Source of the DNA: Escherichia phage vB_EcoM_EP32a
Sequence record: OR544954
Reading direction: 5' to 3' (one strand)
DNA: 64,000 nt
The notes under the pieces are model-generated. The model saw only the letters and a program-made list of their open reading frames with translations, had not been told where the DNA came from and searched no databases. This document shows, piece by piece, positions 1,218-17,060 of the stretch. The position numbers were made by a program, and so were the translations under genes. Positions within the stretch are counted from its first letter, which is position 1. The number at the start of each line of letters is the position of its first letter.

Positions 1218-1305
1218 AATATCTCCTTAGTTACCTATTATTTATTACGCTTTATAAAATTAATGTTAGAATTAACTCTCTTATACTGAATTGAAAGGAA
1301 AAATA

Positions 1306-1827
1306 ATGGCACACTTTAACGAATGTTCACAACTTATTTCTGGTGTTGATAAAGCAGAAGAAGCTTATTTTAATGCTCTGATTCACGAAGATAAAGACCC
1401 ACTGCAGGTAATGCTTGATATGCAGAAATCTTTACAGGTTCGTTTGGCAAATGATAAGCCTGAACATAACAAACATCCTGATGAATTGGCTACTGCTGGC
1501 GATGTTGTTGATTGGCTGCGTAATCAGAAAGATTATATTGATGATGAATTCCGTGAACTGCTGACTTCACTTGGCGGTATGAGCAATGGTGAAAAAGCCG
1601 CCAGCAGTGTATGGAAGCCGTGGAAAGCACAACATGCTGAATATCGTAATCGTCGTATCGATGAACTGTCTCCTGAAGACCAGCTTGAAATTAAATTCGA
1701 GATGATTGATATTCTGCACTTCGTTCTGAACATGTTCCAAGGTCTGGGACTTTCTGCTGAAGAAATCTTTAAACTTTACTACTTGAAAAACCAACACAAC
1801 TTTGAACGCCAGGATAATGGTTACTAA
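1306..1827 (+). CDS. 56: dCTP pyrophosphatase (dCTPase/dUTPase, gp56-like)
   Basis: ATG at 1306 preceded by AAAGGAAAAA; sequence MAHFNEC...FRELLTSLG...LYYLKNQ matches recalled T4 gp56; ORF track start at 1291 is TTG. Confidence 0.85.
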   Translation: MAHFNECSQLISGVDKAEEAYFNALIHEDKDPLQVMLDMQKSLQVRLANDKPEHNKHPDELATAGDVVDWLRNQKDYIDDEFRELLTSLGGMSNGEKAASSVWKPWKAQHAEYRNRRIDELSPEDQLEIKFEMIDILHFVLNMFQGLGLSAEEIFKLYYLKNQHNFERQDNGY

Positions 1828-2181: not shown

Positions 2182-2209
2182 ATTCTTACTTACTCAAGAG
2201 GAGAACAAT

Positions 2210-2437
2210 ATGTTAAATCATTGGATTAAACCTAATAACACATTAGGTGCGTTGATTGCTCAAGAAGTTTCGTTAAAGTATGGTCTTGGATACTATGATG
2301 ATGTTGTGGTACATTCTTTCATGATGGATGGTGAAGACGTCAAATTTAATGCCGAAATCCGTTGGGATGATGGTGGTGTTCGTTTTGTTCGAGGAACAAT
2401 TAATGCTTACGATACTGAAGAAGTTGTTTGCTGTTAA
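2210..2437 (+). CDS. hypothetical protein (75 aa)
   Basis: ATG at 2210 with SD GAGGAG; ORF track start 2102 lies upstream in promoter/terminator DNA. Confidence 0.5.
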   Translation: MLNHWIKPNNTLGALIAQEVSLKYGLGYYDDVVVHSFMMDGEDVKFNAEIRWDDGGVRFVRGTINAYDTEEVVCC

Positions 2438-2450
2438 ACCAGGCGAAGGT

Positions 2451-2636
2451 ATGATGCCTATTCCTGATACACACGAAAAAAGTTGGGAATATATCGGTGA
2501 CGGAATGATGGAAGAAGTTGTTCGTCCTAATGCTTCAAACTCTTCAAGTTATAATCATTCTTACGTATCATCCTGGTCTGGAGATTCTGGTTCAAGTTAT
2601 TCTGATTGTGATTCAAGCTCAGGGAGCTGCGAATGA
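2451..2636 (+). CDS. hypothetical Ser/Cys-rich small protein (61 aa)
   Basis: ATG at 2451 with SD GGCGAAGG; starts right after the preceding stop. Confidence 0.4.
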   Translation: MMPIPDTHEKSWEYIGDGMMEEVVRPNASNSSSYNHSYVSSWSGDSGSSYSDCDSSSGSCE

Positions 2637-2812
2637 ACAAGATAGTTAAATGGTTTAAAAGCTGGGACGACGGTGTCGGTCCAGAAGATTGGCTGGATGT
2701 TCTTGAAGAGAATATGGCTAAAGAATTCCAGAAACATGAAGAAAAGCTCGTCGAAGATGAAGGCGAACGTATTGTAAAACTTTATATGGGTGAACCATCG
2801 AGGAAATTATAA
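2633..2812 (+). CDS. hypothetical small protein (59 aa)
   Basis: ATGA overlap with preceding gene and TAATG overlap with next; below ORF-track size cutoff. Confidence 0.35.
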   Translation: MNKIVKWFKSWDDGVGPEDWLDVLEENMAKEFQKHEEKLVEDEGERIVKLYMGEPSRKL

Positions 2813-3276
2813 TGGATGCTATGTTATTTAAAATGTATTTGCTTGAAGCCAAGTCGTTTAAACATATGCCAGTGGAAGATAAGACTCCACTAGAAATAGC
2901 TATTCTCATTAACAAAAGTCTAAATAATCCGCAATATATCGTAGAAGAATTCTGCAAATTGCAGATTCCTAAAGGTTACAAAATTCGTGTAGAGCGAGTT
3001 GGAGCTATTACTCGTTCTAAAAATTCTCCGTTTAGTCTTGAAGAAGGCATAAAGGACTTAGGTTATGAATCTACGGAAAATGCCGTTTATGTGAATCCTG
3101 AAAAGCGTTTAGACTTGTTTGAAAAGCGAGACCATAAGTATTTTGCCAAAAAATACTTTATTACATCATTAGCAGATTTAATCCATTTGCAACGAGCTAT
3201 TTGGAAATTTTTTAAGACAAAAGGTGTAGCGACAGAAACATTCTCTGAACAGCCTAGTTTTTATCTCGGTGAATAA
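2812..3276 (+). CDS. hypothetical protein (154 aa), position of T4 mrh
   Basis: Uninterrupted ORF translationally coupled to neighbours; assignment by synteny only. Confidence 0.5.
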   Translation: MDAMLFKMYLLEAKSFKHMPVEDKTPLEIAILINKSLNNPQYIVEEFCKLQIPKGYKIRVERVGAITRSKNSPFSLEEGIKDLGYESTENAVYVNPEKRLDLFEKRDHKYFAKKYFITSLADLIHLQRAIWKFFKTKGVATETFSEQPSFYLGE

Positions 3277-11580: not shown

Positions 11581-13398
11581 ATGATTAAAAATGAAATTAA
11601 GGTATTGTCAGATGTAGAACATATTAAGAAACGCAGTGGTATGTATATTGGTTCTTCTGCTAAAGAAGCCCACGAGCGTTTTTTGTTTGGTAAATATCAA
11701 CAAGTTGAATATGTTCCTGGTCTGGTTAAATTAATCGATGAGATTATTGACAACTCGGTTGATGAAGCTATTCGTACATCATTTAAGTTTGCAAATAAAA
11801 TTGATGTGCAAATTAAAAATAACCAAGTTTCGGTGGAAGATAACGGACGTGGTATTCCTCAAGGTTTAGTTACCGACCAAACAGGTGAACAAATTCCTGG
11901 TCCTGTAGCAGCCTGGACTATTCCAAAGGCTGGTGGTAACTTTGGTGATGATTCTGAACGCAAGACTGGTGGTATGAACGGCGTCGGAAGTAGTTTAACT
12001 AATATCTTCTCTACGTTGTTTACAGGCATCACGTCAGATGGCGAAAATGAAATCACTGTTAACTGTTCAAACGGAATGGAAAACAAATCATGGTCTTCTA
12101 AGAAATCTAAAGGTAAAGGCACTAAAGTAATCTTCACTCCTGATTTCTCTTCATTTGAAGAGCATAATTTATCTCAAATTTATTTAGATATTACTTTAGA
12201 CCGACTTCAAACATTGGCAGTCGTTTATCCTGATATCAAGTTCACATTTAATGGTAAAAAGGTTGATGGTAATTTTAAACGATTTGCTAAACAATTTGGT
12301 GAAGATAACATCATTCAAGAAAATGATAAAGTCTCTATAGCATTCACAACATCACCAGACGGCTTCCGTCATTTAACTTATGTGAATAACATCCATACTA
12401 AAAATGGTGGTCATCATGTTGAATGTGTAATGGATGATATCTGCGAACATCTTTTGCCCGGCATTAAAAAGAAATATAAGGGTATTGAAGTCACTAAAGC
12501 TCGTGTTAAAGAATGCCTCACAATGTTGATGTTTATTAGAGACATGAGCAACATGCGTTTTGATTCTCAGACTAAAGAACGTTTAACGTCAACGTATGGT
12601 GATATTCGTAATCATATCCAATTAGATGCTAAGAAAATTGCTCAGGCACTTCTTAAAAACGAAGCCTTGATTATGCCTATTGTTGAAGCAGCATTAGCTC
12701 GTAAATTGGCGGCAGAAAAGGCTGCGGAAACTAAAGCAGCTAAAAAGGCAACTAAAGCTAAGGTTCATAAGCATATTAAAGCTAACCAATGTGGTAAAGA
12801 CGCAGATACGACATTGTTCTTAACAGAAGGTGATTCGGCAATTGGTTATCTCATTGATGTTCGTGACCGTGAACTACACGGCGGATTCCCATTACGTGGT
12901 AAGGTGATGAATAGCTGGGGTATGTCATATGCTGATATGATGAAGAACAAAGAGCTCTTTGATATTTGTGCTATCACAGGTCTTATTCTTGGTGAAAAGG
13001 CAGAGAATACGAACTATCGTAATATTGCAATTATGACCGATGCCGATCATGACGGTCTTGGAAGTATCTATCCGGCTTTGCTTGCTTTCTTTAGTAATTG
13101 GCCTGAATTGTTTGAACAAGGACGTATTCGCTTTGTTAAAACGCCTGTAATTATTGCACAAATTGGCAAAACTCAAAAATGGTTTTATACTGTAGCTGAG
13201 TATGAAGAAGTTAAAGATACACTGCCTAAGCATAGTATTCGATACATCAAGGGATTAGGCTCACTTGAAAAGTCAGAATATCGTGAAATGATTCAGAATC
13301 CTGTGTACGACGTAGTTAAACTTCCTGAAAATTGGAAAGAACTCTTTGAAATGTTGATGGGTGATGATTCAGAACTTCGTAAAGAATGGATGTCCTAA
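11581..13398 (+). CDS. 39: DNA topoisomerase II large (ATPase) subunit gp39, unsplit 39+60 form
   Basis: 605 aa; GyrB-like ATPase N-terminus (IDNSVDEA) and TOPRIM region (LTEGDSA, DADHDG) in one reading frame. Confidence 0.9.
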   Translation: MIKNEIKVLSDVEHIKKRSGMYIGSSAKEAHERFLFGKYQQVEYVPGLVKLIDEIIDNSVDEAIRTSFKFANKIDVQIKNNQVSVEDNGRGIPQGLVTDQTGEQIPGPVAAWTIPKAGGNFGDDSERKTGGMNGVGSSLTNIFSTLFTGITSDGENEITVNCSNGMENKSWSSKKSKGKGTKVIFTPDFSSFEEHNLSQIYLDITLDRLQTLAVVYPDIKFTFNGKKVDGNFKRFAKQFGEDNIIQENDKVSIAFTTSPDGFRHLTYVNNIHTKNGGHHVECVMDDICEHLLPGIKKKYKGIEVTKARVKECLTMLMFIRDMSNMRFDSQTKERLTSTYGDIRNHIQLDAKKIAQALLKNEALIMPIVEAALARKLAAEKAAETKAAKKATKAKVHKHIKANQCGKDADTTLFLTEGDSAIGYLIDVRDRELHGGFPLRGKVMNSWGMSYADMMKNKELFDICAITGLILGEKAENTNYRNIAIMTDADHDGLGSIYPALLAFFSNWPELFEQGRIRFVKTPVIIAQIGKTQKWFYTVAEYEEVKDTLPKHSIRYIKGLGSLEKSEYREMIQNPVYDVVKLPENWKELFEMLMGDDSELRKEWMS

Positions 13399-13426
13399 GC
13401 TCCTTCGGGAGCTTCATTTTAATTTT
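13397..13426 (+). terminator. intrinsic terminator
   Basis: AAGCTCC-TTCG-GGAGCTT hairpin followed by a T-rich run. Confidence 0.6.
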
Positions 13427-13440
13427 AATAAGGTTTAATT

Positions 13441-14541
13441 ATGAAAGTTATGTTTATCCCATCTCGTGCAGTCCCATTTAATCCTGACCGTGTACAAGGT
13501 GGACTTGAAGCAGTACATTTAAATGTGTTGAAATATCTTGTGTCCATCGGTGCTGATATTGATTATATCGGCTTTGATAATGACACATTTGGTGATTGGA
13601 AGGTTAATCATCATCCTGTTGGTCATCTGACTAAATTCAGTCTAGGTATGAGTTATACTATGGCTCGTAAGATTGTTGAACTAGCCGGCATTAATGAATA
13701 CGATTTCGTTGTTACAATGGAACCGACTAAACTAACCGTCCAAGCAATTAAAGATGCTGGACTCTCTAAAGTTCATAAGAATTTTATGGCAACACCATTT
13801 GAACCGGTATCTCGTGGCATTGTTCAAATTTGGGACCAGACTATTCAAATTCATAAGAATGGTGGTAAGAGTTATGCTCCTACTAAAGCCTTCCGTGAAT
13901 TTGAACGCAAATATTGTTATATGACTTCAGGTCTGACTGACAAAATTGATTATGATTATTGGCGAGCAAATCCGTTGTTTGAAGCCGAAGATTATCCGGT
14001 TATTTGTTTGAATGAGAAACCTGAAGTTCTTCCGGCGACTGATCTGATTATTAGTGCACAACGTTATGACACTAAAATGCGTCGTACTGATGTTGCTCTT
14101 GAAGCGATTAGAGCACTAGGCGAAAATGGTGCAGGATACTGTCCTAGTAAATGGGCACCACCAGCTAAATATCCTGTTATTATTGATGCTCCACACAGTG
14201 AAATTATGGAACGTCTTAAAACAGCTAAAGCACTTATTAATACGTGTCCTGACACAGGTACGGTAGAGAATAGTTCTATTGAAGCCATCTCTAAAGGTGT
14301 CCCTGTAATCCAGTTAGTTTTTAAGGATTATCCTCATGCGACATTAGAATACGACCCAGATACTGTGCGTGTAGAAATTGATTCCTCTACTCCTAAGAAA
14401 GAAGTAGTTGCGCTTTACACAAAAGCTGTATTAGAATTCACTGACACATACGAAGCTCGAGTTAAACGTGCTGAAGCAGTATGGAAGAAGTATAATCGAG
14501 ATGCAGTTGTTGCGATGTGGGATAAAATCTTCACAGCGTAA
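13441..14541 (+). CDS. putative GT-B-fold glycosyltransferase (366 aa)
   Basis: N-terminal MKVMFIP...GGLE and C-terminal VENSSIEAISKGVPVI resemble GT4 nucleotide-sugar-binding motifs; sits where T4 has gene 60. Confidence 0.45.
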   Translation: MKVMFIPSRAVPFNPDRVQGGLEAVHLNVLKYLVSIGADIDYIGFDNDTFGDWKVNHHPVGHLTKFSLGMSYTMARKIVELAGINEYDFVVTMEPTKLTVQAIKDAGLSKVHKNFMATPFEPVSRGIVQIWDQTIQIHKNGGKSYAPTKAFREFERKYCYMTSGLTDKIDYDYWRANPLFEAEDYPVICLNEKPEVLPATDLIISAQRYDTKMRRTDVALEAIRALGENGAGYCPSKWAPPAKYPVIIDAPHSEIMERLKTAKALINTCPDTGTVENSSIEAISKGVPVIQLVFKDYPHATLEYDPDTVRVEIDSSTPKKEVVALYTKAVLEFTDTYEARVKRAEAVWKKYNRDAVVAMWDKIFTA

Positions 14542-14552
14542 ATCCTGAATAG

Positions 14553-14613
14553 CCTGAGGCACTATTACACATAAGATGATAGATTATATGGTCTTTAGTA
14601 ATAGTGCCCTAGG
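14553..14613 (+). promoter_or_regulatory. long inverted repeat (11-bp perfect core, 29-nt loop) upstream of rIIA.1-like ORF
   Basis: GGCACTATTAC ... GTAATAGTGCC with extra flanking pairs; no U-tract. Confidence 0.4.
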
Positions 14614-14633
14614 AATCTACTGAAGAGAATATT

Positions 14634-14834
14634 ATGAGAATATATAACGTGGACTTGGAACTTTTTGATAAAGCTGTACTCCGGGAATTCCGGCTTATCC
14701 AAAGATTTTTTGATATCGAATCAGCAGAGTCCTTTAAAGAACGCTTTAAGGAAATTCGATATAAAATACAAACCGATACAGCTACTAAAGAAGAACTTCT
14801 TGAAGTAGCAGAAATTTTTAAACGTAACTTGTGA
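14634..14834 (+). CDS. hypothetical protein (rIIA.1 position, 66 aa)
   Basis: Small ORF directly upstream of rIIA. Confidence 0.45.
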   Translation: MRIYNVDLELFDKAVLREFRLIQRFFDIESAESFKERFKEIRYKIQTDTATKEELLEVAEIFKRNL

Positions 14835-14846
14835 TGAGAGAAAAAT

Positions 14847-17060
14847 ATGATTATTGAAACGGCTAAAGAAACGATTATTGGTTCAGGCGGTAAGAGCACA
14901 GCATTTACTATTCAAGGCAATAGCAAAGTTTATAAGATTTTGTCTAATGACCTTTATACAAACAAAGAATTGGCTTGTGTACGTGAATTAATCACAAACT
15001 GTATCGATGGTCAAATTCTTAATGGTTGCACTGATAAGTTTATTGTTCAGGCTCCAGGTCGTTTAGACCCACGTTTTGTAGTTCGAGACTTTGGTCCTGG
15101 TATGAGTGATTTCACCATTCGAGGTAATGACGAAGAGCCAGGAATCTATAATTCATATTTTGCTTCAACTAAAACATCGAGTAACGATTTCATTGGTGGA
15201 TTCGGACTCGGTTCTAAAGCTCCACTAGCGTATACCGATACGTTTAACCTTACGTCTTATCACAACGGCGAAGTTCGTGGTTATGTAATCTACCAAGATG
15301 ACACGGGTCCACAAATTAAGCCAACCTTTGTAGATAAGATGGGCCCTGATGACCGTACGGGTGTAGAAGTAGTTGTGCCGGTTAACCCGGAAGATTTTGA
15401 AAAGTTTGCATCCGAAATTGCATATGTTATGCGTCCTCTAGGTGATATCGCAGAAGTTCGTGGTGTTAAAGATATTAAATACTTCCCTGAATTTGACGAT
15501 GTATATTTGGCCAAGGAAGCTCCATGGGGTGAACGTGGTAATATCATGGCTGTTTATGGTGGTATTGTATATCCAATCGGAAGTGTTATTAAAGAACAAA
15601 CATGGATGATGACGCGATGCACTACAGCTTATATTAAATTCCCTATGGGTGAACTAGATGTAGCCCCGTCTCGTGAAGCATTGTCATTTGATAAACGTAC
15701 AGTAGCAAATATCCATAAACGTGTTGCAGAAATCGATGCTAAATTGTTCGCTGAAGATTCTAAGAAATGGATTGATTGTAAATACCCACGTCATGTATTC
15801 CGTGAAATTGATTCTCTTGGTTATACCGCTCGTAAATACATGGAAAAGGCTGGGTCTAATATTGAATCACTGAAATACTCTAAAGAACAACTAACTTATT
15901 CCGAGTTGTACAAACGTTTTAAAATGGGGCCCGAATGGTGCAACCTTGGTGTTGTATATGATATCGTTTCAGACCCACGACTTCGTCGTATTCGTGAAAG
16001 TGGTAGCTCATCGGCAACTATTTCAATTAACAGTCTGATTGGCATTAACATTAAAAATGTTGAAATTGTTATTGACGACGTTAAGGGACGCGTTCCATTA
16101 ATGCGAGCTCTTAATTCAATTGAAATGTCTAAAGACGAGGTTAAATTAACTGGTAAAGTTCCACGCGGTTTTGGTAAAAGCGTACTATTCGTTGACCCTA
16201 CAGACGAAGATGCAATGAAACTTCTTGAACGCCTTAAAGTTATCTTTGATGGCGACAACATTAACATGTACAAGACTTCAGAGCTTTTACAAATCGTTAA
16301 GCCATGGATTGAAGTCAAGACTCGTTCTAATGGGCCTCGTCCTAAATCCCCAAGTGCTCATCGGTTCTTTAAGAATGAAAACGATGTTTGGGTATCAGAA
16401 GATCTCTTTATTCCAGCGAGTGAAGCTGATGAAATCCAAGGTTATGCTATAGTTCGTAATCGTTCTAATGCTGAATGTCTTGACGCAGATAAAGGTTGGT
16501 TGAACTATGACTCCAATTTCTTGACCCGTATTGCTGATTTGTCAGGTATTAAAGAGTTCACTGTAGTCCGTCCACAGATTGCTAAGAAAGTTCGTAAACT
16601 TGGTGAAGTAGAATGCTTGTTCGAAAAATCAATTAATGACTATATTATGCTAATCGATAAAGTGGATTATGATGAGTATGTATCACCAAGTCGTAGAGCA
16701 CAGCCTTATTTGAATCATATTACTCGTAATGAAGAGCTTAACTTCCTTAGTAAGTATTTTAGCTCTAAGAACAAAGAAATCAGTAAAGACTTTGCAAAAC
16801 TCTCAACAGTAAATAATCGTTGGGGATGGAATCGATTCGCAGGTGCTACTAATACAGACCTGAATAAGAAGTTAGAATTGTGTGCTAAAATTTTCGATAA
16901 GCTTAAAGATAATGCTTACGATAATGATGATAAAATGGTTATTGAATTCGAAACCAATTATCATATTGTGTCAGACTACATGGGACGACGTGGTACTCTT
17001 TCTAAAGAACAAGTCGCTCAAATCGTTAAATTCATGAAGGCTGTGGAAGCAGCCAAATAA
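14847..17060 (+). CDS. rIIA: rIIA protein
   Basis: 737 aa; N-terminus ETIIGSGGKS...YKILSNDLYTNKE...VRELITNCIDG matches recalled T4 rIIA. Confidence 0.9.
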   Translation: MIIETAKETIIGSGGKSTAFTIQGNSKVYKILSNDLYTNKELACVRELITNCIDGQILNGCTDKFIVQAPGRLDPRFVVRDFGPGMSDFTIRGNDEEPGIYNSYFASTKTSSNDFIGGFGLGSKAPLAYTDTFNLTSYHNGEVRGYVIYQDDTGPQIKPTFVDKMGPDDRTGVEVVVPVNPEDFEKFASEIAYVMRPLGDIAEVRGVKDIKYFPEFDDVYLAKEAPWGERGNIMAVYGGIVYPIGSVIKEQTWMMTRCTTAYIKFPMGELDVAPSREALSFDKRTVANIHKRVAEIDAKLFAEDSKKWIDCKYPRHVFREIDSLGYTARKYMEKAGSNIESLKYSKEQLTYSELYKRFKMGPEWCNLGVVYDIVSDPRLRRIRESGSSSATISINSLIGINIKNVEIVIDDVKGRVPLMRALNSIEMSKDEVKLTGKVPRGFGKSVLFVDPTDEDAMKLLERLKVIFDGDNINMYKTSELLQIVKPWIEVKTRSNGPRPKSPSAHRFFKNENDVWVSEDLFIPASEADEIQGYAIVRNRSNAECLDADKGWLNYDSNFLTRIADLSGIKEFTVVRPQIAKKVRKLGEVECLFEKSINDYIMLIDKVDYDEYVSPSRRAQPYLNHITRNEELNFLSKYFSSKNKEISKDFAKLSTVNNRWGWNRFAGATNTDLNKKLELCAKIFDKLKDNAYDNDDKMVIEFETNYHIVSDYMGRRGTLSKEQVAQIVKFMKAVEAAK

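Follow-up and report, generated by a model that had tools for sequence, protein, structure and literature searches.

A GT-B glycosyltransferase gene between topoisomerase gene 39 and rIIA.1 of a Mosigvirus-like Escherichia phage, a probable second DNA arabinosyltransferase

In our study, the 64,000-nucleotide stretch of DNA from Escherichia phage vB_EcoM_EP32a (sequence record OR544954; the whole stretch is called the window hereafter) was found to contain a 366-aa open reading frame (ORF) whose product is a GT-B enzyme of GT4-like type with two Rossmann domains. The protein is probably the "arabinosyltransferase 2" of Mosigvirus, the ortholog of RB69 gp3/ORF003c, which adds a second D-arabinofuranose to the phage DNA. 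Publications from 2018 to 2026 already describe the gene with its fold, a crystal structure and the role proposed for it, and the finding itself is therefore already known. What is added here is a comparative argument for the second-sugar role, in which the copy number of the family is set against the glycan length.

The gene and its position

The ORF started with an ATG codon, opened with MKVMFIPSRAVPFNPDRVQGGLEAV and included TVENSSIEAISKGVPVIQ. It is a real gene, because the open frame is too long for chance (the probability of 366 sense codons in a row was about 4e-12 at the window composition, GC 0.377) and because dN/dS against three relatives, at about 3% nucleotide difference, was 0.04-0.07 at a dS of 0.12-0.13. 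The minus-strand ORFs within the gene (40-74 aa) were rejected, as they were short and the conserved frame was the plus frame. Horizontal acquisition with an odd composition was also rejected, as the GC content (0.37-0.40) agreed with that of the neighbouring genes.

The upstream neighbour was found to be an unsplit topoisomerase gene 39 (11581..13398, 605 aa), and the downstream neighbours were rIIA.1 (14634..14834, 66 aa) and then rIIA (14847..17060), exactly the arrangement given in the preliminary description. The coordinates of the features are listed in the table. The first 25 kb of the window showed 97.6% identity to Escherichia phage APCEc01 (Mosigvirus, RB69 group; APCEc01 record positions 1-25055). 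From gene 39 to rIIA (5.5 kb) the window showed 95.1% nucleotide identity to RB69, where the order of the genes is rIIA - rIIA.1 - RB69ORF003c - 39. The RB69 match and the shared gene order identify the ORF as the ortholog of ORF003c of RB69 (gp3, RB69p003, NP_861693), and the gene order around the orthologs was identical in RB69 and about 155 relatives.

Table. Features of the window that bear on the glycosyltransferase gene, with the basis of each
Feature	Coordinates	Strand	Basis
dCTPase, gene 56 homolog	1291..1827		72% identical to T4
Terminator-like hairpin AAGCTCC-TTCG-GGAGCTT, UUCG tetraloop, T-rich tail	13397..13414	+	pattern scan; overlaps the gene 39 stop codon
Shine-Dalgarno-like AAGG, 7 nt 5' of the ATG, putative function	13430..13433	+	read from the sequence
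CDS, 366-aa GT-B (GT4-like) enzyme, probable DNA arabinosyltransferase	13441..14541	+	ortholog of RB69 ORF003c/gp3 and of the HY126 glycosyltransferase (PDB 9iqz/9ir0)
N-terminal Rossmann-like domain, about residues 1-175	13441..13965	+	secondary-structure order of the model, invariant columns; G20-G21-L22 loop, E94, T118-P119 and R125 invariant
Putative nucleotide-sugar-binding C-terminal Rossmann-like domain, about residues 200-366	14038..14541	+	hhalign to P0018; ortholog crystallised with UDP; invariant columns

In T4 the order of the genes is rIIA - rIIA.1 - 60 - 60.1 - mobA - 39. T4 gp39 aligned to 11581-13002 of the window (79% identity), T4 gp60 to 12997-13390, which is the C-terminal end of the unsplit gene 39, and T4 rIIA.1 to 14634-14831 (71% identity). 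The gene 60 bypass element, 60.1 and mobA were absent at 11581-13398, where gene 39 is unsplit. As gp60 is homologous to the C-terminal end of the gene 39 of the window, the ORF is no replacement for gene 60. The earlier placement of the ORF "where T4 has gene 60" was thus right about the neighbourhood, as the ORF lies near the gene 60 equivalent, but it was not right about the place. Judged by these alignments, the ORF occupies the site of the 54-bp spacer of T4 between gene 60 and rIIA.1.

The hairpin at the end of gene 39 carries a rho-independent terminator annotation in the 99%-identical phage SA79RD. Since this terminator-like hairpin lies between gene 39 and the ORF, the two may not be transcribed together in a simple way. 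A scan for sigma-70 promoters around the ORF found 10 matches against 13.7 in shuffled sequence, which is fewer than in the shuffled sequence and uninformative. The spacer between the ORF and rIIA.1 (14542-14633) was found to be 92 nt long, whereas T4 has only 54 bp at the corresponding place. It contained a strong hairpin with 11-bp arms, GGCACTATTAC...GTAATAGTGCC, with a dG of -28.6 kcal/mol and a z score of -4.4 against shuffles. In Shigella phage JK45 (L005, NC_054940), a perfect (100%) 503-bp tandem duplication of the last 390 nt of the gene plus the spacer was found at 2207-3212, which yields an extra annotated 136-aa ORF corresponding to residues 237-366. Either the duplication arose very recently or it is an artefact of assembly. 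The JK45 record is classified as Tequatrovirus, though this region of it is Mosigvirus-like.

Fold, domains and conserved residues

Database searches with the sequence gave few matches. The Pfam scan of the ORF found no family at E <= 10, PHROGs matched it only to a family of unknown function, and a profile of 11 diverse family members searched against all PDB sequences found only 9iqz and 9ir0 and no other solved glycosyltransferase. These two entries (9iqz apo, 9ir0 with UDP) are the glycosyltransferase of phage HY126, of 369 residues, in which 8 of the 366 aligned positions differ from the ORF. Their source is probably He et al. 2026 Nat Chem Biol. The presence of UDP in the crystal of this 98%-identical protein was taken from the title of 9ir0, and from it we infer the binding site and its contacts.

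The AlphaFold2 model of the ORF protein (8-sequence alignment, mean pLDDT 83.4, pTM 0.79) contained two alternating strand/helix halves. With Foldseek, the model was placed on 9ir0_A (E 3.5e-62, TM 0.92) and 9iqz_A (TM 0.95), followed by GT4-type GT-B enzymes at 10-14% identity, namely tetrahydrobiopterin glucosyltransferases, PimA, LmbT, BshA, MshA and WaaG. Two Rossmann-like beta/alpha/beta domains with an interdomain cleft were found, as in the GT-B fold, so that the GT-B call made earlier from short motifs held in the structure prediction. The ORF did not reach the curated threshold of CAZy GT4 or Pfam Glycos_transf_1 (PF00534), and its relatives gave only weak sub-threshold GT4-conflict matches. 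By hhalign, residues 246-333 aligned to the Glycos_transf_1 region of the bacterial glycosyltransferase P0018 with 94% probability. The GT4 link was visible only through this alignment, the fold and the HHpred results of PMC6024577; a plain HMM search cannot show it.

From general GT-B architecture, the N-terminal domain is presumed to form the acceptor side, which would face the DNA-bound arabinose, and its boundary is likewise presumed. The invariant residues of the C-terminal domain were Q207-R208-x-D210, R214, K243 and the motif T272-G-T-V-E276-x-x-S279-x-E281-A282. Conservation of the G20 G21 L22 residues and of this motif with its continuation (G286-x-P288-V289) was complete or nearly complete down to 36% identity, and the two segments that had been picked out in the preliminary description proved to be the most conserved blocks of the family.

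The canonical E-x7-E of the C-terminal domain was not found in the family, which has "PDTGTVENSSIEA" where P0018 has "PDESFGITALEA". The profile-profile alignment with P0018 (94% probability) set "PDTGTVENSSIEAISKGVPVI" opposite "PDES-FGITALEALSRGVPCI". The second Glu of EX7E was kept as the invariant E281, the first was substituted by Thr272, and a new invariant Glu276 was present between them. This T-G-T-V-E-x-x-S-x-E-A variant (residues 272-282) was shared by the two Acinetobacter paralogs and by metagenomic members of the family at 36-39% identity; its replacement of E-x7-E may be the reason that Pfam Glycos_transf_1 detects no member. The E281 residue probably contacts the UDP ribose, and R208 and K243 probably contact the phosphates. 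The E276 residue may stand in, within this family, for the first Glu of EX7E, as an adaptation to a furanose donor.

Family distribution and the proposed role in DNA arabinosylation

Thomas et al. 2018 (PMC6024577) reported arabinose in RB69 DNA and, from custom HMMs and HHpred, proposed ORF003c as an arabinosyltransferase with a GT-B fold. Lee et al. 2026 NAR (PMC13326640) reported that the base is 5-hydroxycytosine, with 5hodCMP made by a thymidylate-synthase homolog, and that 5hodC in RB69 DNA bears mono-arabinose or beta-D-Araf-(1->3)-alpha-D-Araf through an ether bond. In that paper the first transferase is proposed to be gp46:47, and gp3 is proposed to be "beta-arabinosyltransferase 2"; in its Table 1, gp3 is marked as putative and not as "confirmed experimentally". 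In the DNA of Mosigvirus NP the mono:di ratio was 1:4 (2026 AEM paper, PMC13390438), and the ortholog of the ORF is named as the putative second transferase in both PMC13326640 and PMC13390438. The 5-hydroxycytosine of RB69 and NP DNA carries arabinose, and this DNA contains no glucose and no hmC (PMC6024577, PMC13326640, PMC13390438). In vitro, purified DLP3 gp76 and gp77 use UDP-Araf to place a third arabinose on RB69 DNA; each was inactive alone, and the two were active only together, on di-Ara DNA (PMC13326640). A preprint that cites Mahler et al. 2025 (Cell Host Microbe) gives the DNA of LC53 as mono-arabinosylated and that of Bas46 as di-arabinosylated. Another paper, on the same authority, mentions that deletion of the "arabinosyltransferase Aat" in Bas46 made the phage sensitive to a plasmid-borne defence system. 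The papers covered, among them the three with PMC numbers above, describe no direct assay for the enzyme of Mosigvirus.

In the published pathway, the phage thymidylate-synthase homolog makes 5-hydroxy-dCMP, which replaces C at replication. The first transferase (AraT1; RB69 gp46:47) would then attach alpha-D-arabinofuranose to the 5-hydroxyl, on the nucleotide or on the DNA. The ORF protein would bind UDP-arabinofuranose in its C-terminal domain and would add a further D-arabinofuranose at O3 of the sugar already on the DNA, which would give beta-D-Araf-(1->3)-alpha-D-Araf-5-hydroxycytosine. The longer glycan would shield the phage DNA from host nucleases and other defences. The ORF protein probably performs this second step by itself.

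A tblastn search with the ORF found the family in 211 phage records, about 155 of them from Escherichia/Shigella at 95-99.5% amino acid identity and 55 from Acinetobacter phages at about 42%. Even with the most divergent query at E <= 1e-3, the family remained at about 210 records, all from Mosigvirus-type or Acinetobacter phages. In public protein space the family made up 7 clusters at 90% identity, and an exhaustive phmmer search of 1.84 billion representatives found only 10 proteins at E < 1e-10. The sole bacterial-type match, P0018, aligned only to the C-terminal domain. AraT1, searched with the APCEc01 protein, was found in 348 phage records of many genera. The hosts of these records were Escherichia, Klebsiella, Serratia (including LC53), Yersinia, Proteus, Providencia, Edwardsiella, Pectobacterium, Shewanella (Thanatos-1), Acinetobacter and others. 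Among the annotated records listed, the AraT1 match overlapped an annotated thymidylate-synthase-like gene, except in those from Proteus, Providencia, Shewanella and Acinetobacter. No homolog of the ORF family was found in Serratia LC53 or Shewanella Thanatos-1, both of which are AraT1-positive and reported as mono-arabinosylated.

The number of family copies followed the glycan, although the correlation is drawn from few chemically characterised phages: no copy was found in the mono-Ara phages (LC53, Thanatos-1), one copy in the di-Ara phages (RB69, Bas46, NP-type) and two tandem copies in the tri-Ara phage DLP3. DLP3 gp77 and gp76 were 42.6% and 41.1% identical to the ORF over the full length, at E values of 1e-100 to 1e-108. 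In Maestro and DLP3, the two copies lay directly 3' of genes for a nucleotide kinase, AraT1, the 5hodCMP synthase, a phosphatase, a bifunctional kinase/nucleotidyltransferase and an arabinose-5-phosphate isomerase, and each of these operon genes was a clear homolog of its APCEc01 counterpart. The tandem paralogs inside the arabinose operon of Acinetobacter phages were located at L004 9001-11300 and L010 3324-5619. One metagenome contig (L008, 450-2482) contained a 42%-identical member followed immediately by AraT1 and kinase homologs; another (L007, 3040-4224) contained a family gene after dsbA in a T4-like context. With sites as different as the gene 39/rIIA.1 interval, the operon and these two contigs, the gene therefore changes position and yet stays with the arabinose pathway.

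The second-sugar role is supported because AraT1 is widespread, mono-Ara phages included, and the ORF family was found only in di-/tri-Ara lineages, and also because the paralogs DLP3 gp76/gp77 arabinosylate DNA that is already arabinosylated. The preliminary description had suggested a DNA-modifying transferase of the arabinosylating sort in an hmC phage. That was right in kind, by the orthology with RB69 gp3 and the literature; the base is 5-hydroxycytosine and not hmC (PMC13326640), and the sugar added is probably the second and not the first.

The reading in which the ORF protein is the base-proximal transferase, joining the first or only arabinose directly to the modified cytosine, was proposed by Thomas et al. 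2018 and was implied in the preliminary description. It agrees with the original HMM/HHpred assignment (PMC6024577) and with the "putative hmC-arabinosyltransferase" annotation of Bas46 and Bas47. However, the mono-arabinosyl-5hodC phages LC53 and Thanatos-1 have AraT1 beside the 5hodCMP synthase and no ORF homolog, AraT1 is syntenic with the synthase across the arabinosylating lineages whereas the ORF family is confined to lineages with at least two sugars, and the paralogs act on DNA that already carries arabinose (PMC13326640); we therefore consider this reading quite unlikely. Several GenBank records would make the protein an hmC glucosyltransferase, that is, a divergent alpha-GT, which is extremely improbable. 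Against these annotations stand the absence of sequence similarity to T4 a-gt or b-gt, the absence of glucose and hmC from the DNA of RB69 and NP (PMC6024577, PMC13326640, PMC13390438) and the production of 5hodCMP, not hmdCMP, by the phage thymidylate-synthase homolog (PMC13326640). The predicted structure is also nearer to bacterial GT4 enzymes than to AGT.

That the protein glycosylates a nucleotide, a phage protein, a lipid-linked host glycan or the like instead of DNA, or serves as the non-catalytic partner of another transferase, is highly unlikely. A case for it could be made from the closest solved non-phage relatives (PimA, BshA, MshA and tetrahydrobiopterin glucosyltransferases), which use small molecules and lipids, from the mutual need of DLP3 gp76 and gp77, which hints at an accessory subunit, and from the first arabinosylation, which could take place on the nucleotide or on DNA (PMC13326640). 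But genomic DNA was the acceptor in the in-vitro reaction of the paralogs (PMC13326640), the residues put forward for catalysis and nucleotide binding do not vary between the two paralog lineages and the ORF, the ortholog binds UDP according to the 9ir0 title, and the gene and the length of the DNA glycan vary together. The GT4-like fold relatives of the ORF protein are retaining enzymes. It is conceivable, though unlikely, that the single-copy enzyme is not a simple stand-alone second transferase and may need AraT1 or a homo-oligomer partner. The T-G-T-V-E-x4-E residues may define a furanose-specific donor pocket that gives a beta linkage from a normally retaining GT4-like scaffold, a stereochemistry not seen in other DNA glycosyltransferases.

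Related enzymes, the rest of the pathway and annotation

The RB69 ORF003c/gp3 and HY126 glycosyltransferases differ from the ORF by few substitutions, and nothing suggests a different function. DLP3 gp76/gp77 and Maestro gp077/gp078 belong to the same family (41-43% identity over the full length) and share all of the invariant motif residues, and gp76/gp77 use UDP-Araf and arabinosylated DNA in vitro (PMC13326640). In DLP3 and Maestro the two tandem paralogs lie within the arabinose operon, are needed together and add a third sugar (beta-1,5), whereas in Mosigvirus only one copy is present, at about 20 kb from the operon, and the chain ends at two sugars. AraT1 (RB69 gp46:47/APCEc01_258/DLP3 gp79) acts in the same pathway and is reported to be GT-B-like and a predicted user of UDP-arabinose (PMC13326640). 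It has no detectable sequence similarity to the ORF (BLASTP E > 4), it is about 300 aa long, and its proposed linkage is alpha, to the base.

T4 AGT (1y6f/1xv5) and beta-glucosyltransferase showed no similarity to the ORF by BLASTP, as had been stated in the preliminary description, and their genes have different genome positions. The T4 enzymes use UDP-glucose as donor and the hydroxymethyl group of hmC as acceptor, whereas the ORF enzyme is proposed to use UDP-arabinofuranose and a sugar hydroxyl. The beta-alpha-glucosyltransferase of T2/T6 (gentiobiosyl-hmC) likewise extends a monosaccharide on DNA cytosine to a disaccharide (PMC13390438), with a different sugar and base. The bacterial GT4 retaining glycosyltransferases (PimA 2gej, BshA 3mbo/6n1x, MshA 3c4q, WaaG and sucrose-phosphate synthase 6kih) were 10-14% identical to the ORF, in which the first Glu of EX7E is Thr272, the invariant Glu276 is added and the acceptor is probably DNA.

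The window begins at or inside the primase gene 61 (1-1023), and the dCTPase gene was the only gene of the cytosine-modification pathway found in it besides the ORF. A tblastn search of the 64-kb window with T4 a-gt, b-gt, gp42 and seven proteins of the APCEc01 arabinose cluster found no real match (best E 0.014), so that the check for agt and bgt proposed in the preliminary description came out negative within the window. In APCEc01 the arabinose cluster (155451-162003) is flanked by DNA polymerase and uvsX and lies just upstream of the position that corresponds to the left end of the window, and the slot of T4 a-gt (between genes 47 and 55) contained only small ORFs. The cluster is probably present in the source genome, going by relatives at about 97% identity; the genes for the 5hodCMP synthase, AraT1 and UDP-arabinose synthesis were not found in the 64-kb window.

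DNA hypermodification decides which host defences can attack a phage, such as restriction enzymes, CRISPR-Cas, DNA glycosylases and GmrSD/BrxU-type enzymes, and it matters for phage therapy and phage engineering. The ORF gene appears to determine how long the arabinose chain on the DNA of Mosigvirus becomes. The annotations of the family were found to be inconsistent, as its members are called "hypothetical protein", "DNA alpha-glucosyltransferase" (HX01 and Acinetobacter phages) or "putative hmC-arabinosyltransferase" (Bas46, Bas47), and the value of the present analysis lies mainly in the correction of these names. The arabinose/5-hydroxycytosine cluster of APCEc01 (L002, 20452-27004) was also found to be largely mis-annotated, with genes named "phosphoheptose isomerase", "peptidase", "hypothetical protein" and "thymidylate kinase"; in that record the label "hypothetical protein" covers the 5hodCMP synthase (238 aa) as well as AraT1 (299 aa).
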